Of a stretch of DNA of 64,000 bases, positions 7,443-59,646 are shown piece by piece (within the stretch, counting starts at the first letter, position 1; each line of letters starts with the position of its first letter). Source of the stretch: an uncultured Gammaproteobacteria bacterium (GTDB lineage: Bacteria; Patescibacteriota; Patescibacteriia; Magasanikbacterales; UBA922); contig CAZFUL010000003.1 in the NCBI GenBank assembly GCA_964522435.1, forward strand, positions 57,542 to 121,541. Reading direction: 5' to 3'. Made by a program: the position numbers and the translations under genes. The notes beneath the pieces are model-generated. The model saw nothing but the letters and a program-made list of their open reading frames with translations. It did no database searches and was not told the origin of the DNA.

Positions 7443-7463
7443 TAACTTTCAAGAACCACGAAC

Positions 7464-7490
7464 AGCCCCAAATAATTTGGGGTTGTTTTT
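7464..7490 (+). terminator. Rho-independent terminator after the Cys-rich repeat protein gene
   Basis: agCCCCAAATaatTTTGGGGttgttttt hairpin plus T-run 20 nt after stop. Confidence 0.7.
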
Positions 7491-7567
7491 ATATTTTCAT
7501 TTTTTTTCATTATTTTTTTGCTACTCTTCTAACAGAAAGAGTATTCATTTATGTTAAGGAGGAACAT

Positions 7568-26945: not shown

Positions 26946-27995
26946 TTGATTGTTGTTGCTATGCCTCTCACTAAAACACATGAACGAATTAACATTAATA
27001 ACCGTCGGGTTATTAATGGTGCGGATGCGGATGTTATCCAGCTTTATCCCATGAAGCATACCTTTGCCTGGAATGCCTACAATGTCGGTAATGCCAATCA
27101 TTGGCTTCCAACAGAAATTGCCATGCAAAAAGATATTGAACAATGGCGTTCTCCAACCATTTTAACGGATGATGAACGAAAAGCATTAAAAACCGTCCTT
27201 GGATTTTTTACCACTGCGGATTCTATTGCAGCAAACAATATCGTTATTGCGATGTATCGTCATATCACCAGTCCGGAGTGTCGCATGTACTTATTGCGCC
27301 AAGCGTATGAAGAAGCGATTCATACGCACGCCTATCAATACATTGTTGAATCTTTAGCCTTAGATGAAGGAGAAATTTTTAACATGTATCGAGAAGTAGA
27401 TGCAATTTATAACAAAGCCTCATTTATCTTAAGTTTTAATGAAGGAATCTTTGATCCAAATTTTAAAACAGGAACGTTTGAAAATGACCAAAAATTCTTA
27501 GAAAATATCGCGGTATTTTCATTGATTATGGAAGGTATTTTTTTCTATAGTTCTTTTGCGGTGATGTTTGGATTTCAACGTCAAAGTAAAATGACTGGGA
27601 GTGCTGAACAAATTCAATATATTATGCGTGATGAATCACAGCATTTGAATTTTGGTATTAACCTCATCAACACGATAAAAGAAGAACAACCAGAATTGTG
27701 GACCGAAGCATTTCAACAACGCATTATCAACTTAGTAAAAGAAGCGGCGGTGTTAGAATATACGTTTGCAGAAACGGTATTTCCAAAAGGAATATTTGGC
27801 ATGAATGCTGATGGGTTTAAAAAATATATTGAACACATTGCAGATCGTCGGTTAACTCGTATTGGCTTACCAGAGCAGTTTCATACACCAAATCCATTTC
27901 CTTGGATGAGTGAAGCGATTGACTTATCGAAAGAAAAAAACTTTTTTGAGACACGTGTGACTGAGTATCAAGTGGGTGGAACATTAGATTGGTAA
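26946..27995 (+). CDS. nrdB: Ribonucleoside-diphosphate reductase beta subunit (diiron, tyrosyl radical)
   Basis: 349 aa; EEAIHTHAY (E..H + radical Tyr four residues after His), RDESQHLNFG second iron site. Confidence 0.9.
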   Translation: MIVVAMPLTKTHERININNRRVINGADADVIQLYPMKHTFAWNAYNVGNANHWLPTEIAMQKDIEQWRSPTILTDDERKALKTVLGFFTTADSIAANNIVIAMYRHITSPECRMYLLRQAYEEAIHTHAYQYIVESLALDEGEIFNMYREVDAIYNKASFILSFNEGIFDPNFKTGTFENDQKFLENIAVFSLIMEGIFFYSSFAVMFGFQRQSKMTGSAEQIQYIMRDESQHLNFGINLINTIKEEQPELWTEAFQQRIINLVKEAAVLEYTFAETVFPKGIFGMNADGFKKYIEHIADRRLTRIGLPEQFHTPNPFPWMSEAIDLSKEKNFFETRVTEYQVGGTLDW

Positions 27996-36313: not shown

Positions 36314-38098
36314 TTATTGCTGTACTGACATCGATTCAATAACCCAATTTCCTCCTTTTTTCGCAGCTACAACTTTATCTCCAACATGAACTAAATTAGG
36401 TACTTTTGCTATTGGTTGTAAAAGGTCATTATCATTGGTAATGTTACTACTTTCACGTACCACTTTTCTCGCAATAGCGATTGCTTCTTTAGGCGATACC
36501 TTATCTGCTTCTGCAATCGTACGAGCAAGTGCTTTAATAACACCCATTCCCTCTGCTTGTTCAAAAACAATAGTATATGCATCACTATGGTGTTTTTCAA
36601 TCCGTAATCCATCTACTGAGTAAATACCACGAATTCCTTTTTTTTCTGGAGCAGCAGCTTGTTGGGTTTTTTCAGAAACAGCTGAATCCTTTTCTCGTGT
36701 TGCTGTTTCAATGGTATGCTTAGGTTTTGATTGTTCCGCTGCAGTGGTTGTTTCTTGATGTCTCCCATCAATAGAATTGCTGTCTGGAGTTGCTCTGCCA
36801 GCTGTGAGTCCTAAAAATAATCCTACTGCTGTTAACCCTCTTCCAATTTTACCAAAGAATCCTTTTTTGGCTACTGGTGGGGTTGGAGTGACTACCGTTG
36901 CTACCGGAATAGCTGTTACCCTGACGGTAGGGTCAACACTTTTTGATTTTTTTTCTGGGGGAATGGTTGTGTCTTCTGGGGATGTACGCGCTATTTCTAC
37001 CACTGGGTGGAGTGATTTTTTTGGGCTAGGTGCTTGTCCTTCTTTAAATGCTGCAAATAGAACATCTAATTCCCTTGTATCATATTGCACTTGTATGTTT
37101 CCACGGTCTTGCTCTTGTTGATCTAAAAATCCGAGTAACATTCTTGGATCTTCTGATAGATGGTTTGTTATAAATTCTCTAAAATAATTGTTTACTCTAT
37201 AATACGAAAATAATTTTATATGCTCTGATCGTGCGGTTACGTCATTTTTTGATAGATCGAGTACATATAAACATGCTAATTTTGTGTCAGCGGCGGTGGT
37301 AGGGTTAAGTGCCAACACCATTTCTACTTTTTCAACTATTTCTCCATTTGTGTAATGAGGCATTAGTTCATTAACAATATCAGCCACTTGTGGATTACCC
37401 TTTGTTTCGTAACTTGGTGTATCAGCTGATAAATCCTTTTTAATTTTTTGGTTCAATTGTTCCAAGCTGTGGGTTTGGGTAACGTGATCTGTTGTTAATG
37501 CAAAATCGTCTGTTTCATAATCATCAACAGGAGGTGTTGCTGCTCTAATTGGTTCGATGCCAACGTTAATAATAGTAGATGAAGGCGCTTGTTCTGTTCC
37601 TCGAATTGTATCAACACCGATGGCGTGTATAACAGCGGCTGGTTTTTCTTCTTGTGTGGTTTCGCTTCTTTCAGTTTCTTGAAATTGTTCTTTAGAAAGA
37701 CGAATATGAATGCGGTTTATTTTTTTTGCGAGGGGGTTGAGTTTTTCTGGTGGCATTCTTTTCCAGGCAGTACCCTTAAATTCTTCTATACCAAGACCTA
37801 TAAGCGTATCCTTCCCATGTTGAAGAATATAGCCTTCTATTTCTTGTAAGAGATCCGCTTTTTCTTGATCTCTTTTTTTATACATTTCTGATAAATCTCG
37901 TGCAATAATATCTAAATCATTAGCTACTTTTTTTCGTTCAGCAGCTTGCTCGTCGATGTGGCTTAAAGCCTGTCTTATTTTGAGACCTTTTTCATTATCC
38001 CCTCTTACTTCTTTAGGATCAGGAATTTGAGTTGCCTTTTTTTTATCTACCAAGGGGTTACGTTGACCAGGTTCGTAAATGGGTGGTTTTTCTGGCAT
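36314..38098 (-). CDS. Hypothetical bitopic membrane protein: ~450-aa charged cytoplasmic region, one TM (GFFGKIGRGLTAVGLFLGLTAG), ~130-aa C-terminal ectodomain
   Basis: 594 aa; no recognizable catalytic motif; Pro/Thr-rich segment before the TM. Confidence 0.4.
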   Translation of the reverse strand: MPEKPPIYEPGQRNPLVDKKKATQIPDPKEVRGDNEKGLKIRQALSHIDEQAAERKKVANDLDIIARDLSEMYKKRDQEKADLLQEIEGYILQHGKDTLIGLGIEEFKGTAWKRMPPEKLNPLAKKINRIHIRLSKEQFQETERSETTQEEKPAAVIHAIGVDTIRGTEQAPSSTIINVGIEPIRAATPPVDDYETDDFALTTDHVTQTHSLEQLNQKIKKDLSADTPSYETKGNPQVADIVNELMPHYTNGEIVEKVEMVLALNPTTAADTKLACLYVLDLSKNDVTARSEHIKLFSYYRVNNYFREFITNHLSEDPRMLLGFLDQQEQDRGNIQVQYDTRELDVLFAAFKEGQAPSPKKSLHPVVEIARTSPEDTTIPPEKKSKSVDPTVRVTAIPVATVVTPTPPVAKKGFFGKIGRGLTAVGLFLGLTAGRATPDSNSIDGRHQETTTAAEQSKPKHTIETATREKDSAVSEKTQQAAAPEKKGIRGIYSVDGLRIEKHHSDAYTIVFEQAEGMGVIKALARTIAEADKVSPKEAIAIARKVVRESSNITNDNDLLQPIAKVPNLVHVGDKVVAAKKGGNWVIESMSVQQ

Positions 38099-43766: not shown

Positions 43767-44501
43767 TTATGCCTTTGTTTGTTTGAGTTCTTCGTACAAA
43801 ATGGTAATGGCACTCGTAGATAACGGCGTGAGGAGGAGACTGAGCAATGTTGATAGTAATGCGATCATACCAGAGAGGGCTAACGCAATTGTAGGGGTAG
43901 CCGTTTCTGGTAAGACAAATGATAGTATGAGAGAAAGGATGCCATCTGCGATAAGCGCAAAGAGAATAAACACTACGGTGGGTGCTACTAAACGACCAAG
44001 TACAGGGAAGAATCTTCCGGCTACTAACATTTTACTTTCTTTGAGTGCAGCCATTCCTTTTGTTCCATCAATACTTACATGATAAAAGGCAAAAACATAC
44101 CAAATAATAAAGACAATGCCTGGGATAAATAAGAGAAATAGTCCTCCAAGAACAATGAGTCCTGTTAATATGGATACCCAAAGTGTTGGAAGAAAAAGAG
44201 CGCTTGCTTCTTTGAGTGATGCGTTGATAGGGCCAGTGGTTTGCGTGGTGTAGGCTTTTGCCGTAGCGCGGATAAAGGCAATAGAAATCCAGAGGCTACT
44301 ACTATATACAATGACAAACAAGACAATACTCAGAATTCGCGCAGCGAGGCCTTGAAGTTCCGCCATTGCCCCAAGGATGCTGATCATTACTGCTAGGGCT
44401 GTTGGAATAAATAAAAGAAGCATGTAGCGGATAAATACTCTGTAATGGACTTTGTATAAAAAGATGCTACGTTTAATAATATCTGTAGAAGAGAGGAGCA
44501 T
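43767..44501 (-). CDS. Hypothetical polytopic membrane protein
   Basis: 244 aa, 6 hydrophobic helices; no family recognized. Confidence 0.4.
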   Translation of the reverse strand: MLLSSTDIIKRSIFLYKVHYRVFIRYMLLLFIPTALAVMISILGAMAELQGLAARILSIVLFVIVYSSSLWISIAFIRATAKAYTTQTTGPINASLKEASALFLPTLWVSILTGLIVLGGLFLLFIPGIVFIIWYVFAFYHVSIDGTKGMAALKESKMLVAGRFFPVLGRLVAPTVVFILFALIADGILSLILSFVLPETATPTIALALSGMIALLSTLLSLLLTPLSTSAITILYEELKQTKA

Positions 44502-44559: not shown

Positions 44560-45141
44560 CTATTGGCGTATCTGTGTGTTGACGATCTGCCACAGGTGTT
44601 CATGAATGCTGTCGATTGATTGATTCGCGTCTATTGGCAGCCAGCCACGTTCTTGCGCCAGTTGTTTATGTGCCTCACGGACGACCGTCATAAGCGCATC
44701 ATTGGTTTCATGTTTATGGCCTTGTTCTGTTGCTTCGGTAAATCGTTCTCCATCAAACAAAAAAGCAAGATCTTCTTGTAATAAGTGCGCATTAATGGTT
44801 TCGAGGTATGGTTTATCAACCCCTGCACCAATTCCCCAGGCAATGCCTGTTCCGGTATAATCTTCTGCAACAATATGTATTCCCTTTGCCAAGAATTGTT
44901 TGAGTGTTTCTTCGTATTGGGTTCTGTTTAACGCGTAAATTGTTTGACCTTCTCTTGCAGAGAGGTTGAAGGGGTTACCTTGTCGTAAATACGCATTGAG
45001 CATTGTGCCAGAGGGATGAATATCATAAATAGGGTATTTAAGATATTGTGCAGGATAGCCTTCTTTATTCAAGCGCTCTACCAATTTTTTTGCTTGAGTG
45101 GATTTTCCCAGGTTGTTGATACCGTAGAGGACAATGAACAT
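44560..45141 (-). CDS. tmk: Thymidylate kinase-like P-loop kinase (last gene of thyA-folA-tmk unit)
   Basis: 193 aa; P-loop IVLYGINNLGKST, EDY...GIAWGIGAG resembles the Tmk DRY/LID region; operon context with thyA and folA. Confidence 0.5.
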   Translation of the reverse strand: MFIVLYGINNLGKSTQAKKLVERLNKEGYPAQYLKYPIYDIHPSGTMLNAYLRQGNPFNLSAREGQTIYALNRTQYEETLKQFLAKGIHIVAEDYTGTGIAWGIGAGVDKPYLETINAHLLQEDLAFLFDGERFTEATEQGHKHETNDALMTVVREAHKQLAQERGWLPIDANQSIDSIHEHLWQIVNTQIRQ

Positions 45142-45149
45142 ACAAAATA

Positions 45150-45620
45150 TTATTTTTTGATATAGGTGACAAAAGAAAATAGGGGATGATCTTCTCGTTC
45201 AATTTCTTTCCATATTGTCGGGTCGATTGCGGGGAAAAAGGCATCACCATCTACTGTTTGATCAACATGCGTGATATATAAGCGATCTGAGAGAGCAATG
45301 GTTTGCGCATAGAGTTCTGCGCCACCAATAATAAAGAGCTGTTCGTTTGCATGGGCATCGAGTGCCGCTTGCGGCGAGCCATAGCGAAGAACCTCTTGGG
45401 GAAGAGGGTATTGTTCTTGTCGAGTAATAACAATATTTTTTCTATTTGGCAGGGGACGAAATTGTTCTGGGAGAGATTCCCATGTTTTTCTTCCCATCAT
45501 AACCGTTGCGTCAGTTGTGAGGCGTTTAAAATGCGCCAAATCTTCTGGAAGATGCCACGGCAGTGTGCCATTGTTTCCAATACAATTATTTTTAGCAATC
45601 GCGGCAATTAATGCAATCAT
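45150..45620 (-). CDS. folA: Dihydrofolate reductase
   Basis: 156 aa; MIALIAAIAKNNCIGNNGTLPWHLPEDLAHFKRLT...VMMGRKTWESL. Confidence 0.9.
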   Translation of the reverse strand: MIALIAAIAKNNCIGNNGTLPWHLPEDLAHFKRLTTDATVMMGRKTWESLPEQFRPLPNRKNIVITRQEQYPLPQEVLRYGSPQAALDAHANEQLFIIGGAELYAQTIALSDRLYITHVDQTVDGDAFFPAIDPTIWKEIEREDHPLFSFVTYIKK

Positions 45621-46495
45621 ACAGCAATAGGAAAAGAAATACGGGGATGACTTTGGTAATTTTTGAGAATGGTATCTGTGTAGGTCCAGTCAAATATACT
45701 TGAGAAGCTGCTTGTTTCAATCTGAGGTAGAGGATAGAGATGGGGATCTCTTTGTAATTGTTCTTTTGCTCCCTCAATATGATTAAGATAAATATGGGTG
45801 TCTGCCAAAAAGCCAACCAATTTTCCTTCTTGTAATCCAGATTCTTTTGCTAAGAGATGTAATAATAAAGCATAACTCGCGATATTAAATGGCAAACCCA
45901 ACATAACATCTACCGATCGTTGGTTCCAGAGTAAATTCAATTTACCGTCAATAACGGTTATTTGAAAATTATAATGACAAGGGGGGAGTGCCATCTGGTT
46001 CATCATGCTTGGGTTCCATGCGCACACTAATAGGCGACGGCTAGACGGATCTTTTTTCAGGGTATCAACTAATTGTTTGAGTTGATCAATCCCTTGTCCA
46101 TCATAATTACTATCCCAATTTTCATAGCGTGCATTATAATGCCGCCATTGAAATCCATACACGGGGCCAAGATCACGCTCTTGTTGCATCCGTTCTTTTG
46201 CGGCTTCATCGTGGCCATAGGCTGCTTTTTGTGGATTTGCCCATTCATCCCAAATATGATTATTTCTGTCTTTGAGCCATTGCTTGTCTGTAATGCCTTT
46301 AATAAAAAATTCTAACTCAGAGGCAATCAGAGAGAAGGGCATTTTTTTTGTGGTTAACAGAGGAAATCCTTGTGCCATGTCGTGTTCAAACATGGTGCCC
46401 GCAATGGCAAGGGTACCGGTACCGGTTCTATCTTCTTTTTTGACGCCGGTAGTGAGTACCTGGCGGACAATATTCAAATATGCATCCATAATCAA
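45617..46495 (-). CDS. thyA: Thymidylate synthase (ThyA, folate-dependent)
   Basis: 292 aa; RTGTGT, ...LPPCHYNFQ active-site Cys region; stop overlaps folA start. Confidence 0.9.
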   Translation of the reverse strand: MIMDAYLNIVRQVLTTGVKKEDRTGTGTLAIAGTMFEHDMAQGFPLLTTKKMPFSLIASELEFFIKGITDKQWLKDRNNHIWDEWANPQKAAYGHDEAAKERMQQERDLGPVYGFQWRHYNARYENWDSNYDGQGIDQLKQLVDTLKKDPSSRRLLVCAWNPSMMNQMALPPCHYNFQITVIDGKLNLLWNQRSVDVMLGLPFNIASYALLLHLLAKESGLQEGKLVGFLADTHIYLNHIEGAKEQLQRDPHLYPLPQIETSSFSSIFDWTYTDTILKNYQSHPRISFPIAV

Positions 46496-46506
46496 ACAAT
46501 TAACGC

Positions 46507-48639
46507 TTATGCTGGTGTTTGGGGTGGTTTTTTCAATAATTTACCTTTGCGAATATCTGGTGGTTTTACTACTGTCGCGGGTGTAGGAGGGGTACTTACT
46601 TTTTGTGATCGAGGTTGTGGGGTACTGATGAAAACATCATCATCCTCCTCTTGTGATGCAGCTTGTACCATGGCCTCTTGTGCGAATGAGGCTTCGACTA
46701 ATTGAGCGATATTTGCTTCAATATCTTGTTTTTGTCTTGCTTCAAATTGTGCGAACTTTTCTTCTTGACTGATCGCGGGTCCTTCTGGGTACGTATCTTT
46801 TTCTTCAGTATTTAAGATACGAATCGGTTCTTCAGGAGAAGGAGTATCTTCTAAAAAGGTAGGAGAAAACGCCTCTTTGTAGCTAGCGCCAAGTGCCTCT
46901 GATTGATCTGTCATGAGTGGCTGTGAAGGATCACCTTTGGCGGTGGTTGTGTCGGCGAGATCTTCTATTGCTTGAGAGATGTCTCCTTTAAAGGAGGATT
47001 GTCTATTTTTTTCTTTTACTGCTGTTGTTATTTTTTCACGAGCTGAGACATGATCTGCGCCTATTTGATCAACAAATGTTTTGAGCGTATCTTTCCAATT
47101 TGGTTCGGTAATGTTAATCACCATTGTATTATCTTCTTTTTCACGTGTAGATTCTTTATCACTAAAATAGACACGGATTGGCTTGTCTTTTGGGATATCT
47201 AAAAGAGGATCCGCCATAAGGATTGTTTCTATATCTTTTCCATGTTCTTCTATAAAATCTTTTGGGATATGTTCTACATCCGCTCTAACGCGCATAATAA
47301 CAGGAACCTCTGGCATACGCTCGCGAAGCTGCGCGGTGAGGGTACGTTCAGTTGCGAAGCGTTTTGCGTTCTTCATGCTGTCAATGGCACGTGTCAATTT
47401 TTCTTGCCAATTAAATTCTTTAAGGTTTACGTTAATAATCGGAGATGCTGGATCCTCGAGTGGATTACCCGTTGGTTCATGAAGACTAAAAAAGAAAAAG
47501 GTTCCTTTCCATACATCATGAGATAATTTTTCTTGTAATATATCAGAAAGATCAGCAAGTGTTGCTTCACTCATCTGTTCATACACCGCGCGATCTTTGG
47601 GGTTTTGCATATCGCGGGTTGCAAAGTCTGCCAAAAATTTTCCTAAGAATGGTCGGAATTTTTCTGTGAGTTGTTGTAGCTGGTCCTCTTTACCTGGATC
47701 ACTATCTATTCGATCCACCATAGCCGTGATTTCTTCATTTGAAACATCGTTAAGTGTTTCTGCTGGAGTTATTTTTTCCATTGACCAAGTTCCATTGTCT
47801 ATATTTTTTTGTAGTTCCTCAAATAAATCCGTGGACCAAGGAAGAAGCTCCCATTCCTGATCACCTGTTGTGATCATTTGTTTTGTCTTTGTATCATAGC
47901 CAACAATAATCATCTCTGTTGTATCACCACTTGCGGGCTCCCTGATGCTATATTTTTCTCCTGGAATAAATTCTTGTCCACCAAAAATAAATGCATTTTT
48001 TGTATCAATATCTTTTTGATATGCTTGGTCAACAATAACAGAAGGTTCTTCTTCATCTGGCGTATTATTTATGGTATCAGCCTCCGCTTGCATTGCTGCT
48101 AAGTCTTCTGGGCTAATGAGTGGTTTATCTTGAACCACCTCAGTATCATCCGCATTTATATCTGCTGCTTCTTTTTCCCATGCTGCTAATTGTGCAGGGT
48201 CAATAAGAGGTTCTTTATCTAATAAAGGTGCCACTGCTGTATCCACCGCTTCTGCTACTGCTTGATCTGCTTGTACTTCTGCTTCTAATGCCGCAATTTC
48301 TTCTGCCGCGTCAGTTTGTCCACTCTCTTGTAATACCTTCTTTTTGGTATCCATGTTTCTGAGGATAGAGAGGGCATTGTCAATTGTTTTTACTTTTTCT
48401 TGAGAAAGTTGTTCTGCCTTTTGTTTCAGTTCTGCTTCTTCTTTGGCGTACTCAGCTTCTGTCATACCCATGAGTTTCATGTATTCTTTTTTCCAACGGT
48501 CTCCTTTTCCAAAACTATCTTTTGCTTTGTCTACAGTACCAACATCAGCCGATTTTTTTTCCAAAACGACAGGAGCTTCTTGTGAGGGGGCTTTTTCTTC
48601 TTCTGCAAGTTGTACATTTTTTTTAAACCAATTTGGCAT
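46507..48639 (-). CDS. Large hypothetical acidic, low-complexity protein encoded immediately upstream of thyA
   Basis: 710 aa; Glu/Asp/Lys-rich with Ala/Glu repeat stretches; no recognized domain; stop 12 nt before thyA start. Confidence 0.45.
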   Translation of the reverse strand: MPNWFKKNVQLAEEEKAPSQEAPVVLEKKSADVGTVDKAKDSFGKGDRWKKEYMKLMGMTEAEYAKEEAELKQKAEQLSQEKVKTIDNALSILRNMDTKKKVLQESGQTDAAEEIAALEAEVQADQAVAEAVDTAVAPLLDKEPLIDPAQLAAWEKEAADINADDTEVVQDKPLISPEDLAAMQAEADTINNTPDEEEPSVIVDQAYQKDIDTKNAFIFGGQEFIPGEKYSIREPASGDTTEMIIVGYDTKTKQMITTGDQEWELLPWSTDLFEELQKNIDNGTWSMEKITPAETLNDVSNEEITAMVDRIDSDPGKEDQLQQLTEKFRPFLGKFLADFATRDMQNPKDRAVYEQMSEATLADLSDILQEKLSHDVWKGTFFFFSLHEPTGNPLEDPASPIINVNLKEFNWQEKLTRAIDSMKNAKRFATERTLTAQLRERMPEVPVIMRVRADVEHIPKDFIEEHGKDIETILMADPLLDIPKDKPIRVYFSDKESTREKEDNTMVINITEPNWKDTLKTFVDQIGADHVSAREKITTAVKEKNRQSSFKGDISQAIEDLADTTTAKGDPSQPLMTDQSEALGASYKEAFSPTFLEDTPSPEEPIRILNTEEKDTYPEGPAISQEEKFAQFEARQKQDIEANIAQLVEASFAQEAMVQAASQEEDDDVFISTPQPRSQKVSTPPTPATVVKPPDIRKGKLLKKPPQTPA

Positions 48640-48857
48640 AGAAAAACATTAAAGGGTATCGATGGTTTTGTGAATGTTGGTTAAATCAGCCTGCTCTTTT
48701 TGCTGTATCGCAGTAGTAAAGATCTGGTTGGCTTTTTGTTGGAGCGCATCATCTTTTTGTTGTATAGCAAACAAACGCTGCAAGAGAGTGTCGAAATGTT
48801 TTTTAATAGAAGGGAAGTTCATATACTTGTTAGTATAGCGAAATTTTTTTATCTTGC

Positions 48858-49295
48858 CTATCCTGTTGTCCCAAATCCACCACGATTTTTTTTATTCATA
48901 CTCTCTACTTCTACCAGTGTTGCTTGATCCGCGCGTACGAGCAGTGCTTGGGCAATACGTTCTCCTTTTTCTATGCGAACCGCTTCATCAGTAAGATTTT
49001 GTACGAGAAGGTAAATCTCGTCAGCATCACCACAATAATCTTGATCAATAACAGCAATGCCATTTCGCATAGACAGACCCTTCTTTTTGGCAGAGCTAGA
49101 GCGGGCTGCAATAATAAGCGCATAGCCCTGTGGTATCTCTACCACAATATTTGCGGGTAATAACAAAAATTCCCGAGGGGGAATGGTGGCTTCAATTCTT
49201 GTGTACAGATCAAATGCCACTGCCCCGGGAGTTTGGTAAGCTGGGAGCGGCAGCGTGGTGTCAATACGTTTAATGCGTAACTCCATAGCGTTCAA
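48858..49295 (-). CDS. dut: dUTP diphosphatase
   Basis: 145 aa; AFDLY, ...IIAARSSSAKKKGL, ...IDQDYCGD..., GERIAQ dUTPase motifs. Confidence 0.85.
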   Translation of the reverse strand: MNAMELRIKRIDTTLPLPAYQTPGAVAFDLYTRIEATIPPREFLLLPANIVVEIPQGYALIIAARSSSAKKKGLSMRNGIAVIDQDYCGDADEIYLLVQNLTDEAVRIEKGERIAQALLVRADQATLVEVESMNKKNRGGFGTTG

Positions 49296-49845
49296 TAAGT
49301 GTGGTTAATTGGCGATGAAGATCTTGTTTATCACCATTATTATCAATATGTTCTGTACTGTGTTGTATGACCTCTAAAATACTCAATTCTGTTGATCGTT
49401 CATGATCCGCTAAAAATTGTTCATAGGTCTTTTTTTGATCATCCGCGTTCTCGCTTCTTGCGATAAGACGTTCATAACGAATACGGGGATCCGCAGATAC
49501 GTCTACTAAGACAAATCCTGGAATTGCTTGTAAATAAGCAATATCTGCCATACGGCGGATACCATCAACGACGATTAATTGGTGGGAATCTTCTTGTACA
49601 TCATGGGCAATAGTTTTTGCCAACACATCTTCTCCAAAATCGTTGCGGAGACTTTCAGAAATTTTTATTAAATGATCACGCGTATGTTCTACATACACCC
49701 GATCTAATATATCTCGTAAAATAGTAGAAAAACGGTAGCTTTTGGCTCCAAAGGTTTGTTCGAGGTACGCAGCACAGGTTCCTTTGCCACTGGCAAGGAG
49801 GCCTGTTAATCCAATAATACAGCGTTTGTTGTTATTGTCCTGCAT
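49270..49845 (-). CDS. P-loop nucleotide/deoxynucleotide monophosphate kinase-like protein
   Basis: 191 aa; CIIGLTGLLASGKGT Walker A, IVVDGIRR; placed between dut and dCMP deaminase. Confidence 0.4.
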   Translation of the reverse strand: MQDNNNKRCIIGLTGLLASGKGTCAAYLEQTFGAKSYRFSTILRDILDRVYVEHTRDHLIKISESLRNDFGEDVLAKTIAHDVQEDSHQLIVVDGIRRMADIAYLQAIPGFVLVDVSADPRIRYERLIARSENADDQKKTYEQFLADHERSTELSILEVIQHSTEHIDNNGDKQDLHRQLTTLIERYGVTH

Positions 49846-50353
49846 ATTGTTCTACCATGTCATCAAAATAATGTAGCGCTATACCCACTTGACGGAACAT
49901 ATCTTCACTTTCTGCTCCGGCATGATATTTCTTTTCGCACACTACCCGCACAATGCCCGCATTAATAATCATTTGGGCACACACGCGGCAGGGGGTCATT
50001 TTGCAATATAATACAGAGCCTTCAATACTGACGCCTAGTTTTGCGGCTTGAACAATAGCATTTTGTTCGGCATGGGTGGTGCGAACACAGTGTTGGGTTT
50101 CGTGACCATCTTGGTGACGAACAATTTTAAATAAATGGCCAAGCTCATCACAATGAGGTAATCCTGCGGGAGCACCAACATAGCCGGTTACGAGAATTTG
50201 TTTGTTTTTTGCAATCACACAGCCAGAACGACCGCGATCACAGGTTGCCCGTTGCGCAACGGCTCTTGCTACCTCCATAAAATACTCATCCCACGAAGGG
50301 CGATAATGTTGTTCTTGGGTCATATAAAAGAGGATAAAAAAGACAGGCAGCAA
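49832..50353 (-). CDS. dCMP deaminase (cytidine/deoxycytidylate deaminase family)
   Basis: 173 aa; zinc motifs HAEQNAI and PCRVCAQ. Confidence 0.8.
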   Translation of the reverse strand: MLPVFFILFYMTQEQHYRPSWDEYFMEVARAVAQRATCDRGRSGCVIAKNKQILVTGYVGAPAGLPHCDELGHLFKIVRHQDGHETQHCVRTTHAEQNAIVQAAKLGVSIEGSVLYCKMTPCRVCAQMIINAGIVRVVCEKKYHAGAESEDMFRQVGIALHYFDDMVEQYAGQ

Positions 50354-50399: not shown

Positions 50400-50437
50400 T
50401 GGGAGGATAAAAAAATCCTGCACCATTCTGGTGCAGG
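50400..50437 (-). terminator. Rho-independent terminator after rplA
   Basis: Minus-strand reading ATCCTGCACCagaaTGGTGCAGGATtttttttatcc. Confidence 0.7.
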
Positions 50438-50456
50438 ATTTTATGTATCTGATATA

Positions 50457-51260
50457 TTAGGCTGTTACGTCAACTTTTACACTTGGCCCCATTGCAGAGG
50501 TAAGATACAGTGCTTTGATGTAGGTTCCTTTTGCGGTATTTGGTTTTGCACGGCGAAGCGCATCAAGGAACGCAACGATGTTTTCTTTTAATTGTTGTTC
50601 TGAAAAACTGACTTTTCCTACCACTTGGTGAATATTTGCGGTATCGTCATTTTTACAAGAGATTTTTCCTTTTTTGAGCTCTGTTACCATTTTAGCCACG
50701 TCAGTACCAACAGTATCAGTCTTTGGATTCGGCATGAGCCCTCGGGGTCCAAGAACACGAGCGATCATCGCGAGTTTCGGCATCATATCTGGGGTAGCAA
50801 TAGCGACATCAAAATCTACTTTACCGGTGTCTTTAATAGTTTTAATATCTTCGTCAGTAAAGATAAAGTCTGCTCCAGCATCTTTTGCTGCTTTTTCACT
50901 GTTTGGGTTTACAAAGGCAGCGACGCGTTTTGTTTTACCCACACCATGTGGAAGGGTAAGGGTCATACGAATGTGTTGGTCTGTTTTTTTGGTATTAATA
51001 CCAAGACGAGCATGCACTTCTACAGATGCGTCGAATTTTACGGTGCTTGTTGCTTTAATCAGCGGAAGGGCTTGATCAAGCGAATACAGCTTTGTACGGT
51101 CGATTTGGGCTGCCGCAGCAGTCATTCTTTTAGACATATATATGGATATACCCGACTTTGCTACGCTTCGTCGGGCACGCGTGGTACATACCTCTGAATG
51201 ATCAGAGTCCCACATAAAAATAAGTAGGCTGACTATACGAAAAAAATGCGATATTGTCAA
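50457..51260 (-). CDS. rplA: 50S ribosomal protein L1 (true start probably ATG at 51137, MSKRMTAAAAQ)
   Basis: L1 signature ...KFDASVEVHARLGINTKKTDQHIRMTLTLPHG...; the first 41 codons of the ORF are non-L1 sequence. Confidence 0.85.
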   Translation of the reverse strand: MTISHFFRIVSLLIFMWDSDHSEVCTTRARRSVAKSGISIYMSKRMTAAAAQIDRTKLYSLDQALPLIKATSTVKFDASVEVHARLGINTKKTDQHIRMTLTLPHGVGKTKRVAAFVNPNSEKAAKDAGADFIFTDEDIKTIKDTGKVDFDVAIATPDMMPKLAMIARVLGPRGLMPNPKTDTVGTDVAKMVTELKKGKISCKNDDTANIHQVVGKVSFSEQQLKENIVAFLDALRRAKPNTAKGTYIKALYLTSAMGPSVKVDVTA

Positions 51261-51271
51261 GCACTCAGGGC

Positions 51272-52402
51272 TTATTGGTTGAGTTGCATAGGCATAGCCC
51301 AGCGTGTTTCAAGCCTCCCTTTGCCAATAGCTTCTTGATCAATAGTGCCCATACCGAGTGGAGCCAGAGCCCCAAGAATACGTTCTGTCGTGCTTGCATT
51401 TGCTATAAATGGCTGGCTCAGGGTATTTATGCTAATAGGAATAAGGTCATAGCTTGCTTGAATGTGCTCATCGGTTTTTTCTATTGTTATACCAAGGGTT
51501 AAGCCCTGCATGGTTTCTTCAGAAAAATATTGATCAAAAATAAAGTTTCCGAGACTATAAAAAATAAGCCGATCATTATATTGTTCAATTGGTTGAATAA
51601 CATGCGGATGTGCCCCAATCACCATGTCTACGCCAGCATCAATAAGGGCATGAGCTTCTTGGATTTGTTGGGTATTTGGTTTGTCTGTGACATATTCTGT
51701 TCCCCAGTGTGGCATAGCAATAAGAACATCTACCTCGCTATTTAATCGTTCTGCTTCGTTGACCACCTCATCAAATCCACTACCAATAAGTTCATGAAAG
51801 CCAAGAAATCCTAAGGTAATACCATGGCTACTGGTCGTAAATGATAAAAACAAGGGATCGTTATTGGGATCACCAAAAAAAGCAATGCCCGTCTCTGTTA
51901 ACACTGTTTTGGTTTGCTCTAATCCTGCTTGGCCAAAGTTATGGGTATGATTATTTGCCAAACTGAGGATATCAAAACGTCTGGATAATGGTTCTGCGAA
52001 TAATGGCGAAAAGGTAAAGGTAAAGCGGGCGCCCCCGGTGCCATTGGCAATAGATTGAAAGTTGGTGATAGGGCCTTCTAAGTTGCCGAGCCGAAGGTCG
52101 TAGTCAGAAAATAATGCGTCAATCAACAAAAAGGGGTGATCATAGCTCCCGGCTGCTTTGGTTTTTAACCAAACACTGCGGTCAAGCATCATATCTCCCA
52201 CGGCTAATAAGCGGACTACCTCTTTGGAGGGTATTTCTGGGGCTGCGGCAAGCTCCAGCTGAGATGGCGTATTAGGAAAAGGAAGAGTCGTTTTTGGAAA
52301 TAGGGATCTATTAAACAGCAATACAACAACGCTTGTTGCAAGAAACACCAGCAAACAAATAATCGCAATCAGAACATATCGTTGTGCAGCAGATAAGGGC
52401 AT
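51272..52402 (-). CDS. CapA/PGA-capsule-synthesis-family metallophosphoesterase-like protein, N-terminal TM
   Basis: 376 aa; LLAVGDMMLDR, LGNLEGP, ANNHTHNFG, IAMPHWGTEY, GAHPHVIQP motifs of the CapA (PGA_cap) family. Confidence 0.7.
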   Translation of the reverse strand: MPLSAAQRYVLIAIICLLVFLATSVVVLLFNRSLFPKTTLPFPNTPSQLELAAAPEIPSKEVVRLLAVGDMMLDRSVWLKTKAAGSYDHPFLLIDALFSDYDLRLGNLEGPITNFQSIANGTGGARFTFTFSPLFAEPLSRRFDILSLANNHTHNFGQAGLEQTKTVLTETGIAFFGDPNNDPLFLSFTTSSHGITLGFLGFHELIGSGFDEVVNEAERLNSEVDVLIAMPHWGTEYVTDKPNTQQIQEAHALIDAGVDMVIGAHPHVIQPIEQYNDRLIFYSLGNFIFDQYFSEETMQGLTLGITIEKTDEHIQASYDLIPISINTLSQPFIANASTTERILGALAPLGMGTIDQEAIGKGRLETRWAMPMQLNQ

Positions 52403-52412
52403 GTGAAGAAGA

Positions 52413-53339
52413 TTATTTTTTGAGAATCACCGTACAAGAACTTGGGCTGCTATCTTCGTCAAATCCTGCAGGGCAGCTATTGTTGAGGTCGTTACTCGGG
52501 TTACACATAAGAGTCCCATCTGCACGATAGAGGGTACTAAAACAGTTGGGACAGTTTTCTATTTGAAGATAATAGGTATTTCCTGCAACGCGACAACGTG
52601 CCACTGAGGCTGATTGTACAGAAGGGTTGTCTTTTAAAAGAGAAAATGGAACGGCTACCCAATCTGGAATACCTTGTTCTGTATAAATGGGTTCTGGCGC
52701 ACTGTAATCTGGAACCGTCGGAGGAGGAGTATTAGAATTATTTTGGGATTCATTATTTGACTGTTGTTGTGAGGATCCTGTTTGAGATCCTGGTCGGCTG
52801 GGTTCTGGAACAATAGGAGGATTTGTTGGTTCTTGGCCAATAGAGCAGGTGCCTATATGTGCTACGGTTACCTGTTGTTGAGCCGCAATACATTCGTTAC
52901 TATAGGTTCTTCCGTTTGTCCCACAGATGGGGTTTGCAATGGGTTCACAAAAACGTGGAGCGTCATACACATCTTCTGCATTCGCACTGGTTGTTGGTGT
53001 ACTCAGCGCTAAAGCCGTATCAATGCCGCAGTCGCCAGATAAAAAGGCAAGGGCGTCACAACGACGTGCATCGGTTAAGACGCAATCAAACACATAGCCT
53101 TGGTCGGTCGTAATAATATCAAAGCTATTTCCATTATAGACACACCAGGCATAGGCTTGTTGCTCTTGTGTACTTGGCACGACGGTTTCATTATTGGTTA
53201 CGGGGGGTTGTTCTGTTTCTTCTTGAACACGAGAACAGCCAGCACCAAGAATAACCAAGATGCTGAGTGAAAGGAGAATACGCAAAAGAGGAATACGCAT
53301 AACACTATGACAAAACCATGTTACTGGGCGAATGAGCAA
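52413..53339 (-). CDS. Lipoprotein with Kazal-type serine protease inhibitor domain and additional Cys-rich modules
   Basis: 308 aa; lipobox LVILGAGC; CEPIANPICGTNGRTYSNECIAAQQQVTVAHIGTC matches the Kazal spacing (C-x6-C-x7-C-x6-Y-x3-C-x..-C) with the PxCG.nG.TY.N.C core; Ser/Gln/Asn/Pro-rich linker. Confidence 0.65.
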   Translation of the reverse strand: MLIRPVTWFCHSVMRIPLLRILLSLSILVILGAGCSRVQEETEQPPVTNNETVVPSTQEQQAYAWCVYNGNSFDIITTDQGYVFDCVLTDARRCDALAFLSGDCGIDTALALSTPTTSANAEDVYDAPRFCEPIANPICGTNGRTYSNECIAAQQQVTVAHIGTCSIGQEPTNPPIVPEPSRPGSQTGSSQQQSNNESQNNSNTPPPTVPDYSAPEPIYTEQGIPDWVAVPFSLLKDNPSVQSASVARCRVAGNTYYLQIENCPNCFSTLYRADGTLMCNPSNDLNNSCPAGFDEDSSPSSCTVILKK

Positions 53340-54504
53340 GATAGCTATGAATATTTTCTATACCTGTATCTAAAATACGTTGAATTGCTTCTTGGCTGTT
53401 AAAGGCATTATGTGGGGTAACGAGTACTTGGGGATGATCAACGAGCACGTTATTAATAAGACTGACCCGTGTTTCTTCAGCAGAATGCTGTGAGAGTAAT
53501 TTTATCGAATCTTGCATCACATCTTCCCCTTCTAATACGTCTAAGCCAGCTCCTGCAACAATCTTGTTGTTGAGGCCATAGAGGAGTGCCTCTGAATCAA
53601 TAAGTGCGCCACGAGCCGTGTTAATAAGAATAACACCTGGTTTCATTTTTTTTATGGCTTTTTTATCTATAAGATGATAGGTGCTGTCAAACAACGGAAC
53701 ATGTAACGAAATAATATCTGATTGTTTTAAGAGTTGTGAAAGCGAAACATAGCGAAAACGATATTCTTGTTGTAATTCTTTTTTTGGCATGGTGTCAAAG
53801 GCAACAATATTTGTATGGAATCCTTGCAACATACGAATGGTGTGAATGCCAATTTTTCCTGTTCCAATAATGCCCACGGTTTTATCTTTTAAATCCATGC
53901 CGCATAAACCATGATAGTCAAAATTGCCTTCTTTTACCCGTTTAATCGCTGGAAACATTTGGCGACTTAAACAAAGCATAAGGGCAATGGTATATTCTGC
54001 CACCGTATGTTCGCCATAATTAGGAACATTGCACACGGGAATATGTTTTTTCTTTGCGTAACCAATATCAATATGATCATAGCCCGTTGAGAGCGTAACA
54101 ATCAATTGTAATTTTGGTAACGCATCAATGATTTTTTTTGATACAGGAGAATCTACAAACACCACCAGGATATTCGTTTCTTTATCAAGCGTTTCTTGGC
54201 TGAGTGGGGTATGACAAACACGCAGCGTAAGGCCGCGCAGTTTTGTGCGAAGATATGTTTTGTGTTCTGGAGTAAGCGTAAGGTAGGCGCTCACGATCGT
54301 TTTTTTCTTTAGCATAGTATCCGTAGTATAACAAAACTCGCCAGAGTTGGCGAGTTTCGTATATTGTATATGCGTACGTCCCTTCTCGGTATACAAGCAC
54401 GAAAACGTCCTCGCGTTAGGGTACCTGCTGTACCCTGCGCTGTGGATGTTTTCTTTGCCTGTATACCGTAGCGGGACTGATAGATGTGGCAGATTAGCCT
54501 TCAA
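53305..54504 (-). CDS. D-isomer-specific 2-hydroxyacid dehydrogenase (true start probably 54315, MLKKKTIV)
   Basis: NAD-binding [12 protein letters not shown], catalytic Arg/Glu/His region LINTARG...D; N-terminal 63 codons of ORF overlap rplK 3' region and look non-coding. Confidence 0.75.
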
Positions 54505-54919
54505 TTTTTACGCCCATTTGTTTTGCGGTTCCAGCAATAATCTTCATTGCTGCGTCCACATCATTTGCGTTTAAGTCAGGCATTTTGGTTTCTGCGATTT
54601 CACGGAGTTGCGCTTTGGTAATAGTACCTGCTTTATCTTTTAATGGATTTGCAGCACCAGATTTAATACCAGCTGCTTTTTTAATCAATGAACTTGCCGG
54701 AGCAACTTTCATGATAAAGTCAAAACTGCGGTCGTCGTACACACTAATAACCACAGGAACAACTTCTCCTTTTTTGTCTGCAGTTCTATTATTAAACTGT
54801 CCACAAAAATCTTGAATGTTTAACCCGTGTTGTCCAAGTGCTGGACCGACTGGAGGTGCTGGGTTAGCAGCGCCACCAACAATTTGTAATTTAATTTGGG
54901 TGACTAATTTTTTTGCCAT
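54494..54919 (-). CDS. rplK: 50S ribosomal protein L11
   Basis: 141 aa; [36 protein letters not shown]. Confidence 0.9.
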
Positions 54920-56001: not shown

Positions 56002-56445
56002 TTAATCGGTGCTTACGGGAAAGCTATTTGCTATATCCTTAAATGTCGTATATCGGATAATTGAAGGAAGATTCCATTCTTTATTGGCCGGATTTTCTGA
56101 GAACAAGGCTTCGGTATAAGGAATTGAGAGACTTTGTTCTATTGCCATAATGGTTGGCTTACCCATACCAGCAAAGTACCCTGCGTCCCAGCCTCGGCCT
56201 TCGCTACTATCATCGGTCGGAAATAGACAAAGGGCGACATCGCATTGTTTACACAATGCATATGCCTGTCGCACTGCTTCTGATTTTGACAGGACATTTG
56301 TATCCAAATTCCACCCTTGAATATTGCTAATCATGGTAACTACTTCATGGCCATTATTTTCTAATAATACAACTAGCTCATTGAGTTGTTTTTTCAATGT
56401 CTCTAAATCAGCACCGCGAAATTTATAGGCTAACCAAATTTTCAT
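56002..56445 (-). CDS. Nucleoside 2-deoxyribosyltransferase-like protein
   Basis: 147 aa; KIWLAYKFRGAD...CDVALCLFPTDDSSEGRGWDAGYFAGMGKPTIMAIE resembles the Nuc_deoxyrib_tr/Rcl fold pattern (flavodoxin-like, conserved acidic residue, GKP). Confidence 0.45.
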   Translation of the reverse strand: MKIWLAYKFRGADLETLKKQLNELVVLLENNGHEVVTMISNIQGWNLDTNVLSKSEAVRQAYALCKQCDVALCLFPTDDSSEGRGWDAGYFAGMGKPTIMAIEQSLSIPYTEALFSENPANKEWNLPSIIRYTTFKDIANSFPVSTD

Positions 56446-58644: not shown

Positions 58645-59646
58645 TTGGCTCACAAGAGGACGATGAAGAGGTGCGGGGAGAGGCATTTTGGTGTATACTA
58701 TGTAGGGATATTAGTAACATATTTTCTCATGTCTCTTTTTTCTAAAAAACCTAAAGACCCGCTTTTTCGCTACCAAGACCCAACAGGTGAATTTGATAAT
58801 CGCCAGTTAACGAGAGGGTTATGGTTTGCCAAACATCGCGAACAATTGCGTAAAGCTCTTATTATAACCGCCATTATTTGGTGTGTGTTGAGTGTGGGTG
58901 GAAGTGTTGTCCTTTGGATAAAATATGTGAGCTACGATCTTTGGATTGATAACGCGGCTCTTATTCGGCAAACACAGGAATTTACCAATTTTACCGAGGT
59001 GCAAGAACAATATCGCGCCCTTCCATTACAATTTGCTCCAAGTCAGGTATTTCAAAGTAATAGTAACCGCTATGATTTTGTCACACCCGTAAAAAATGAC
59101 AATGAGCGTTTTTTGGCACGCGTGTTTTATCATTATGAATATGCAGGGGGAGAAACCCCAGCGCAGACAATACTCTTATTACCATCAAGCGAGGCGGTGC
59201 TTATTGCTTTAGGACAAGAGACCGGCAGCGGGTTTCCTTCTCAAGCTCGCTTGGTTATTGATGATATTCGTTGGAAACGGATTAATCCACATGTGATTGC
59301 TGATATCGAGCAGTATACAAAAGATCACCTCATGATTCCCATGAGTGACTTTGTGTTTCAACCAGAACAAATAGCTCAAGGGTTATTTCATTCAGAAGTT
59401 TCTTTTACTATAACTAATAATACCGCGTATTCGTACTGGGAAATGCCTATCCAAGTGGTATTATTTCGCGGCCAAAATATGGTTGGCGTGTTATATACCT
59501 TGTTGCCAGAATTTTTATCTGGGGAGCAACGTCGGATAGAGTTATTTACTCCTGCACCATTATCTTCTGTGGATAGTATTGAGCTCCATCCTATTATCAA
59601 TATTTTTGATCCATCGGTATATATTGACGTGGGTACGAATATATAA
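58645..59646 (+). CDS. Hypothetical membrane-anchored protein upstream of ftsW
   Basis: 333 aa; TM at ALIITAIIWCVLSVGGSVVLWI; no family recognized; start uncertain. Confidence 0.4.
   Translation: MAHKRTMKRCGERHFGVYYVGILVTYFLMSLFSKKPKDPLFRYQDPTGEFDNRQLTRGLWFAKHREQLRKALIITAIIWCVLSVGGSVVLWIKYVSYDLWIDNAALIRQTQEFTNFTEVQEQYRALPLQFAPSQVFQSNSNRYDFVTPVKNDNERFLARVFYHYEYAGGETPAQTILLLPSSEAVLIALGQETGSGFPSQARLVIDDIRWKRINPHVIADIEQYTKDHLMIPMSDFVFQPEQIAQGLFHSEVSFTITNNTAYSYWEMPIQVVLFRGQNMVGVLYTLLPEFLSGEQRRIELFTPAPLSSVDSIELHPIINIFDPSVYIDVGTNI

Follow-up and report, generated by a model that had tools for sequence, protein, structure and literature searches.

A conserved small protein and an acidic partner at the dut|thyA junction of a Magasanikbacteria thymidylate operon

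Why would an operon devoted to thymidylate synthesis carry, between two of its enzymes, the gene for a 710-residue acidic protein that matches no curated family? The question is raised by a stretch of 64,000 nucleotides (nt), here called the window (assembly GCA_964522435.1, contig CAZFUL010000003.1, positions 57,542 to 121,541). Its minus strand bears eight co-oriented open reading frames (ORFs) between positions 50353 and 44560, in the order dCMP deaminase, P-loop kinase, dut, 57-amino-acid (57-aa) ORF, 710-aa ORF, thyA, folA and tmk. An earlier sequence-only reading had described this contiguous block with its coordinates and had suggested that the acidic protein is co-expressed with the dTMP-forming enzymes or scaffolds them. 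The block itself is borne out: all eight ORFs are present, and Pfam and NCBIfam profiles assign an enzyme identity to six of them, the 57-aa and 710-aa ORFs being the exceptions. These two are undescribed gene families without relatives in curated libraries, within an essential operon of a lineage of the Candidate Phyla Radiation (CPR), and literature searches found no paper on the module or the arrangement. The explanation favoured here is that they form an optional, native and dispensable accessory pair, non-enzymatic, produced together with the operon and adaptor- or hub-like in action; as a complete package, it is held with about even confidence.

A small ORF marks the module

Two genes occupy the dut|thyA junction of the window:

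48649 to 48822, minus strand: 57-aa helical protein, member of a small-ORF family of 56-62 aa with the C-terminal pattern [KR]K[IL]..[IVL][KH].KI..L
46507 to 48639, minus strand: 710-aa acidic protein, net charge -57, with homologues in P0004 (828 aa, locus L001) and in a fragment at locus L010

The arrangement was followed through the contigs of the closest ThyA relatives and 80 species-representative loci, which gave a census of 52 non-redundant operons with a readable dut|thyA junction. In 33 of these dut is joined directly to thyA. A large, highly charged ORF (341-943 aa) stands at the junction in 11 operons, other ORFs in four (a NUDIX protein in L078, a GHKL-like 909-aa protein in L037 and two unknowns), and the remaining four have only a small acidic ORF or a gap of 300-400 nt. 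Where the large charged ORF is present, an ORF of 56-62 aa lies immediately 5' of it in 9 of the 11 cases.

These small ORFs are recognisably one family. Ten of them align nearly gap-free, and in leave-one-out searches with a hidden Markov model (HMM) each outranks every non-member in a set of 20,858 ORFs, at E values from 1e-12 to 0.02 (1.3e-4 for the window member). The nine operons that hold the family have it directly 5' of the large charged ORF, always 5-20 nt away or overlapping it (ATGA in L017), a closeness that suggests coupled translation of the two. About 1.1 Mb of related loci and the remainder of the window yielded no member outside this operon, and a metagenome scan with a two-member alignment returned one spurious coiled-coil match (L095). 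The 57-aa protein itself has no match in Pfam, NCBIfam, PHROGs, PADLOC or the PDB. At the level of sequence, then, the small ORF is a conserved hallmark of the module.

One genome, RIFCSPLOWO2_02_FULL_44_11 (Magasanikbacteria; L026), holds the small and large module twice in the same operon. A small ORF with a partner of about 416-441 aa lies at the kinase|dut junction (L026:4150-5650), and a small-like ORF ending in KAKIKNF with a 205-aa partner lies at the dut|thyA junction (L026:6163-6987).

Distribution in related genomes

An 18-kb Magasanikbacteria contig (L001), fully syntenic with the window, encodes P0004 in the same position. Its order is rplK, 2-hydroxyacid dehydrogenase, Kazal-domain protein, rplA, deaminase, kinase, dut, small ORF, 828-aa gene, thyA, folA, tmk, DUF7847 membrane protein and gatB. 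Between the two loci the housekeeping proteins are 62-86% identical, the small proteins 35% and the large proteins about 26%. The window groups with L010, L001 and L004 in a ThyA tree, and every member of that clade has the module. It is absent from the sister clades (L005/L011 and L007/L020), and the other carriers are scattered over the tree; in sister clades at 75-78% ThyA identity the dut-thyA gap is 7-60 nt. The expectation that the 710-aa ORF would accompany this operon in relatives thus holds in part: the nearest relatives have a homologue at the same position, while the gene is absent from the 33 operons in which dut abuts thyA. Because so many related operons lack the module, the pathway does not need it.

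The module has no mobility genes, repeats or compositional anomaly at its flanks, and a scan of viral contigs yielded no relatives of it. The guanine-plus-cytosine (GC) content of the 710-aa gene is 0.400, and its synonymous-codon profile does not stand out from those of the neighbouring housekeeping genes; a recent horizontal or phage origin of the module was rejected on this native GC and codon usage.

Several other occupants of these junctions were seen. The unrelated 909-aa protein at the dut|thyA junction of L037 (L037:4268-6997) has a GHKL-ATPase-like sequence (NFVDHNPDD...GGNGIGLKQS), one transmembrane-like segment and HEAAH as a C-terminal motif, and no Pfam match. Small, very acidic ORFs of 67-82 aa stand directly 5' of thyA in L018 (4407-4643), L033 (6772-6993), L017 (6740-6988) and L047 (2825-3028); those of L018 and L033 have KELGIKT..EDK.WDKKIA.AK in common. 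It is possible that these ORFs are remnants of the module or a third component of it. Between thyA and folA, L093 (3620-4000) carries a 126-aa gene of the 23S_rRNA_IVP (four-helix-bundle) family, another sign of operon junctions accepting insertions. Finally, the loci of Magasanikbacteria CG11_39_34 (L008/L009/L014:1-7915) hold two giant unannotated proteins (>1,276 aa and 1,749 aa) before thyA-folA, in place of deaminase, kinase and dut; no similarity to the 710-aa protein was detectable in them.

Architecture of the 710-aa protein

The large protein had been described as a Glu/Asp/Lys-rich, low-complexity sequence. It is certainly acidic, with 19.9% Asp plus Glu (141 residues), 11.8% Lys plus Arg (84 residues), a net charge of -57 and no Cys. 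It is not truly of low complexity, since the sequence entropy stays at 2.9-3.9 bits throughout (30-residue windows) and segments are conserved in homologues. It has no hydrophobic segment fit for a signal peptide or a transmembrane helix, and a secreted or membrane nature was rejected on that ground. In a charge-hydropathy plot, the 710-aa protein and all large partners from relatives fall on the disordered side and all flanking enzymes on the folded side.

Homologues are few. Pfam, NCBIfam, PHROGs and PADLOC hold no family that matches, and the best PDB sequence has E = 0.22; for the small protein and nine large partners from relatives, the same libraries and PDB sequences gave only sub-threshold coiled-coil noise. 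In a word-indexed search of 5.8 billion proteins the full 710-aa query finds only itself, and a profile of its domain A (defined below) finds none; an exact-sequence look-up of contigs had no record of the protein either. A HMMER scan of 1.84 billion representatives recovered two remote relatives. P0004 (828 aa) aligns at the N-terminal motif and helix, at aa 203-326 and at the C-terminus, and P0005 (181 aa) aligns only to aa 299-423. BLASTP segments of the window-type family reach E values of 2e-19 and 6e-13 (against P0004) and 1e-3, with z of 5-28 against shuffles, and jackhmmer links its members too. The three members (the window protein, P0004 of L001 and the L010 fragment) share, in colinear order, the N-terminal motif and helix, domain A, and a C-terminal acidic helix with DDD(G)V(W/F) and a Pro/Lys tail. 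The segments map as follows:

48235 to 48561, minus strand: aa 27-135, N-terminal motif DK..DSFG.G.RW.KEY..LM, conserved, with a long helix after it (predicted local distance difference test score, pLDDT, 60-76; z = 21.5 against shuffles)
48067 to 48228, minus strand: aa 138-191, short motif in two copies (PLIDPAQLAAWEKEAADIN / PLISPEDLAAMQAEADTIN; z = 5.6)
47740 to 48027, minus strand: aa 205-300, domain A, predicted small beta-barrel with a helix, its likeness to Tudor/SH3 being one of fold only (34% identity to P0004)
47305 to 47745, minus strand: aa 299-445, domain B, helices, beta-hairpin and helix, homologue of the stand-alone protein P0005 (33.6% identity, E 3e-14)
46960 to 47304, minus strand: aa 446-560, domain B', internal repeat of the beta-hairpin-helix unit, with aa 403-440 resembling aa 507-545 (z = 5.1; low-confidence predicted secondary structure)
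46510 to 46782, minus strand: aa 620-710, acidic helix, DDDVF and a basic tail rich in Pro and Lys (TPPTPA...KKPPQTPA); P0004 and the L010 fragment have colinear C-termini (z = 7.4 and 5.0)

Both internal repeats (aa 138-161/167-191 and 403-440/507-545) score above all 500 shuffles. A single-sequence AlphaFold2 (AF2) model of the whole protein is uninformative (mean pLDDT 40.8). Domain A, at about aa 209-291, can be modelled with moderate confidence as a barrel of five to six strands plus a helix, Tudor/SH3-like; the best structural neighbours of the model, again at the level of the fold, are the capped Tudor domain of Sds3 (7sxi), the Tudor domain of RDM15 (7de9) and FeoA (6e55).

Domain B also occurs by itself. 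P0005 is encoded in L002 (9848-10393) and L003 (6224-6769), with a tyrosine integrase/DNA methyltransferase pair on one side, a SpoU methylase on the other and an unrelated 43-aa transmembrane peptide before it; neither locus has a thymidylate context.

Large partners in other clades

How far does the large protein remain recognisable? At 79% ThyA identity the 710-aa-type protein is about 26% identical, and at 70-78% ThyA identity it can no longer be aligned. Large partners are detectably homologous to each other only within the group of the window, L001 and the L010 fragment, and between L024 and L059; jackhmmer and shuffled Smith-Waterman comparisons linked none of the partners in L004, L017, L018, L021, L024, L044 and L059 to the 710-aa protein. 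What the large partners have in common is a physico-chemical class, the absence of transmembrane segments and Pro-rich basic C-terminal tails. Motifs of the type [FL][IV]DPE..AAM occur in the large proteins of the window, L001 and L004, twice in the 943-aa protein of L004. The module thus evolves in an unusual manner, its 57-aa partner being recognisably conserved and its 340-940-aa partner keeping only the physico-chemical class and terminal features.

One of those features is the last residues. The last ORF before thyA ends in -AA in 5 of 11 module loci, compared with 0.9% of background ORFs (binomial p ~2e-8). The termini are ..GAKAA in L001, ..DEIAA in L017, ..KKAAA in L021, ..ASRAA in L024 and ..SQKAA in L059; the window protein ends in -TPA. 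We take these -AA ends to resemble the C-terminal degron of the ssrA/ClpX type. At the other end, some large partners begin with amphipathic stretches (MSFFDRFRGKK, MGFLSKLFRRE) that are presumably similar to the N-termini of FtsY and SepF.

The enzymes and their operon

The enzymes around the pair, and the membrane protein gene that follows them and had been left out of the sequence-only reading, are:

49832 to 50323, minus strand: dCMP deaminase, 163 aa from ATG 50323 (PF00383, 91 bits against a cut-off of 25, 5e-26; phrog_174, 3.5e-43)
49270 to 49845, minus strand: P-loop kinase, like deoxynucleoside monophosphate (dNMP) kinases (AAA_17/AAA_18 in Pfam; NF006226, 1.3e-19; phrog_139 'deoxynucleoside monophosphate kinase', 1.6e-18)
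48858 to 49295, minus strand: dUTPase, dut (PF00692, 81.2 bits against 22, 7e-23; NF001862, 109.7 against a cut-off of 103)
45617 to 46489, minus strand: thymidylate synthase ThyA, 290 aa (PF00303, 325.8 bits against 24.3, 2e-97; TIGR03284, 312 against 108)
45150 to 45620, minus strand: dihydrofolate reductase FolA (PF00186, 180.1 bits against 25, 3e-53)
44560 to 45141, minus strand: thymidylate kinase Tmk, divergent type (PF02223, 54.2 bits against 27; equivalog TIGR00041 below cut-off, 53.4 against 83.25)
43767 to 44501, minus strand: multi-pass membrane protein of 244 aa, resembling DUF7847/UPF0259 in relatives; its gene is conserved as the last of the block

Together these enzymes cover the steps from dCMP to dUMP (deaminase), dUTP to dUMP (dut), dUMP to dTMP (ThyA), dihydrofolate to tetrahydrofolate (FolA) and dTMP to dTDP (Tmk). 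Against the Pfam family DNMK (PF21448) the P-loop kinase scores 17.9 bits, under the cut-off of 27.1, and it is phrog_139 that it matches. FolA scores under every NCBIfam 'exception' cut-off for trimethoprim resistance. A subset of relatives shares this Tmk type at 64-77% identity.

The block is an ordinary, conventional one for the Candidatus Magasanikbacteria lineage of the Patescibacteria (CPR), to which the named top ThyA matches belong. Dozens of related genomes have thymidylate operons with the same enzymes, order and flanks (rplA upstream, a DUF7847-like gene and gatB downstream); dut mostly abuts thyA in these, whereas the window adds the 57-aa and 710-aa pair there.

Across syntenic operons, identity to the window deaminase is bimodal, about 29-47% in one set (including the close relative L001) and 64-83% in another (L007, L018, L020, L023, L059 and others), which suggests two deaminase variants replacing each other in the operon. 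Identity to the window Tmk is likewise bimodal (61-77% and 22-33%).

The kinase and the deaminase also recall a known defence enzyme, the anti-phage dCTP deaminase (NF041025; dCTPase in PADLOC), whose N-terminal half is matched by the window kinase and whose C-terminal half is matched by the window deaminase. That enzyme is a kinase-deaminase fusion, whereas the window has two genes in reverse order (deaminase first) in a housekeeping operon conserved in the lineage. The identification was rejected on the scores (30.5 and 68.2 against 400 bits) and the separate genes. The module as a whole was likewise rejected as a defence system; it has no PADLOC match, and the kinase and deaminase are housekeeping-operon genes.

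The packing of the genes is close. The sequence-only reading had the stops and starts overlapping from head to tail; three junctions do overlap (deaminase/kinase by 14 nt, kinase/dut by 17-26 nt and thyA/folA by 4 nt), and the others are gaps: 35 nt from dut to the 57-aa ORF, 9 nt from there to the 710-aa ORF, 17 nt from its stop codon to thyA and 8 nt from folA to tmk. The deaminase most likely starts at ATG 50323 and not at TTG 50353, its orthologues being 157-164 aa long. ThyA starts at ATG 46489, giving 290 aa as in all relatives compared. The spacing of 12 nt previously given between the 710-aa stop codon and the thyA ATG must therefore be corrected to 17 nt; an alternative TTG at 46495 lies 11 nt past that stop codon.

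Three signals bear on transcription:

50412 to 50442, minus strand: strong intrinsic-terminator-like hairpin (14-bp stem and T-run) after rplA, upstream boundary of the block
48832 to 48860, minus strand: weak promoter-like TAGGCA-N17-TATACT overlapping the dut stop codon, kept in L001 (TAGGCA-N17-TACACT) and not in L004
43736 to 43758, minus strand: terminator-like hairpin 3' of the 244-aa membrane gene, downstream boundary

Strong terminators were found only at the two flanks, so that the probable transcription unit runs from about 50400 to 43736 and includes the 244-aa membrane gene. No strong intrinsic terminator lies on the minus strand between dut and tmk, and thus none separates the 710-aa ORF from thyA. 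The -10 element TATACT, which had been assigned to the 57-aa ORF as its own, is weak: it matches 9 of 12 consensus positions, and the region holds 22 promoter-like matches compared with 19.2 ± 4.9 in shuffled sequence, that is, no enrichment. Rfam shows no riboswitch or leader in the block (the sole match is a sub-threshold 'Thr_leader' on the terminator hairpin), and no tandem repeats were found in its DNA. Prediction thus makes co-transcription of the block plausible. The proposed co-expression of the 710-aa protein with the dTMP genes is plausible as well, to judge from their co-orientation, gaps of at most 35 nt or overlaps, the lack of an internal terminator and an order that recurs in the nearest relatives.

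What might the pair do?

The favoured explanation would run as follows. An optional two-gene accessory module, vertically inherited, would sit at the dut|thyA junction. Its conserved 57-aa helical protein would be translationally close-coupled to the soluble, acidic and largely disorder-prone 710-aa protein; the two are most likely made together off the operon transcript, and they may form a complex. The 710-aa protein, in which no catalytic signature is seen, is probably non-enzymatic and appears to be assembled of interaction-type parts: the N-terminal motif with its long helix, duplicated short linear motifs, a Tudor/SH3-like barrel, a duplicated beta-hairpin-helix unit and a Pro/Lys tail. 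Such a protein would probably serve as an adaptor or hub, its abundance following the expression of DNA-precursor genes. Repeated losses of this old, native pair mean that the pathway does not require it. PopZ and the acidic A-domain of FtsY join acidic, Pro/Glu-rich regions of low hydropathy to interaction modules that are short and helical or small and folded. The large partners are like these in composition, by analogy only: no sequence or profile similarity links them, and no GTPase or oligomerisation domain was identified.

Some points weigh against this explanation. Most large partners in other clades have no detectable homology to the 710-aa protein, and they may be non-homologous replacements instead of one diverging family. 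Confidence in the AF2 models is low beyond domain A and the N-terminal helix (mean pLDDT 40.8 and 52.3), and the term 'disordered' derives mainly from composition, the AF2 alignment having held only three sequences. In addition, synteny at this depth also keeps unrelated neighbours (rplA, gatB, the Kazal-domain gene), so that position alone says little about function.

Could the pair be cargo instead? On this account dut|thyA is a permissive, well-expressed insertion site, and the pair has a role unrelated to nucleotides (for example in the cell cycle, in the envelope or cytoskeleton, or in conflict or host interaction of episymbiotic CPR cells) and is kept in place by inheritance. The patchy spread on the ThyA tree and the extreme sequence turnover of the large partner fit it well, as do the unrelated occupants of the same or neighbouring junctions (the GHKL-like protein in L037, NUDIX in L078, 23S_rRNA_IVP in L093, small acidic ORFs in L018, L033 and L017), the equal synteny of the functionally unrelated rplA and gatB with the block, and the position of domain B next to an integrase elsewhere. 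However, the flanks show no mobility genes, repeats or compositional anomaly, and there are no PADLOC or PHROG matches and no viral relatives. The small-ORF family is confined to this operon in about 1.1 Mb of related loci and the window, and even the duplicate in L026 is inside the same operon. Cargo of this kind is a possibility to be taken seriously, if a rather unlikely one.

The scaffold proposed in the sequence-only reading goes further, in that the 710-aa and 57-aa proteins would be dedicated to assembling the dTMP and deoxynucleoside triphosphate (dNTP) enzymes into a metabolon or condensate, with an outcome like the dNTP synthetase complex of phage T4. That complex unites dCMP deaminase, dUTPase, thymidylate synthase, dihydrofolate reductase, dNMP kinase and ribonucleotide reductase, and is held together by contacts between enzymes and by gp32. 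The window has the same set of activities, and its kinase and deaminase match the phage families phrog_139 and phrog_174. We know of no dedicated acidic scaffold protein in the T4 complex, and the 710-aa protein has no homologue in PHROGs or viral contigs.

A scaffold would account for a module embedded in the operon directly 5' of thyA, for an arrangement seen again in the nearest clade and, marked by the small ORF, in several others, and for fidelity to the operon, with copies at both kinase|dut and dut|thyA in L026. The interaction-type barrel, the repeated short motifs and the long charged regions also look hub- or scaffold-like. Yet the module is missing from 33 of 52 operons, sister clades at 75-78% ThyA identity included, and no motif is common to all large partners. 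It is hard to reconcile a scaffold with a large protein that is about 26% identical at 79% ThyA identity and unalignable at 70-78%, because the enzymes it would bind are highly conserved. Domain B exists alone outside a thymidylate context, unrelated genes fill the same junction elsewhere, and synteny here keeps unrelated neighbours equally well. A dedicated scaffold is therefore improbable.

A related and more speculative thought is that ultra-small CPR cells use the pair to organise or regulate their dTMP/dNTP enzymes. It might be a tether, a scaffold for a condensate or a regulator tuned by proteolysis, and it would be kept by composition, short motifs and a C-terminal signal and not by alignable sequence. 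This would come as a surprise to us; if true, the pair would give a cellular dNTP-synthesis complex its first dedicated component that is not an enzyme.

That the 710-aa ORF is decaying or spurious and non-functional, as its lack of family matches, its singleton cluster in the protein database and its low AF2 confidence might suggest, is extremely improbable and effectively refuted by its homologues: it is no chance ORF, since its 2,133 nt are open without interruption at 40% GC and homologues are conserved at the protein level (with P0004 in discrete segments, and with the L010 fragment), and it has native codon usage and a conserved small ORF upstream.

Returning to the accessory pair, if it does act on dNTP enzymes, it offers a handle on how minimal cells organise DNA-precursor synthesis. 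If it does not, it illustrates cleanly how streamlined genomes gather fast-evolving accessory genes at their operon junctions. Either way, it cautions against reading function from adjacency alone.

Other features of the window

The window had been called heavily invested in deoxynucleotide supply, on account of nrdAB and a deoxyribosyltransferase-like gene at 56002. The former are confirmed (nrdA at 24081-26927, nrdB at 26946-27995) and lie 17 kb from the block. For the latter, the ORF at 56002-56445 on the minus strand, the match to Nuc_deoxyrib_tr is only a sub-threshold one (25.5 against 28.8 bits).

Upstream of the block, rplK (54494-54919) and rplA (50457-51260) are split by a 2-hydroxyacid dehydrogenase, a Kazal-domain/DUF6970 protein and a PGA_cap-family protein (51272-54504 for the three); the first two interruptions are kept in L001, L007 (Kazal only) and L094. 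Two further ORFs, of 594 aa (36314-38098, minus strand) and 333 aa (58645-59646, plus strand), have no Pfam match. On the plus strand, 4884-10948 encodes two large probable surface proteins, the first of 852 aa with CarboxypepD_reg and DUF4215 repeats and the second of 1,126 aa with five Lamin-tail domains, a PKD domain and an OB-fold.

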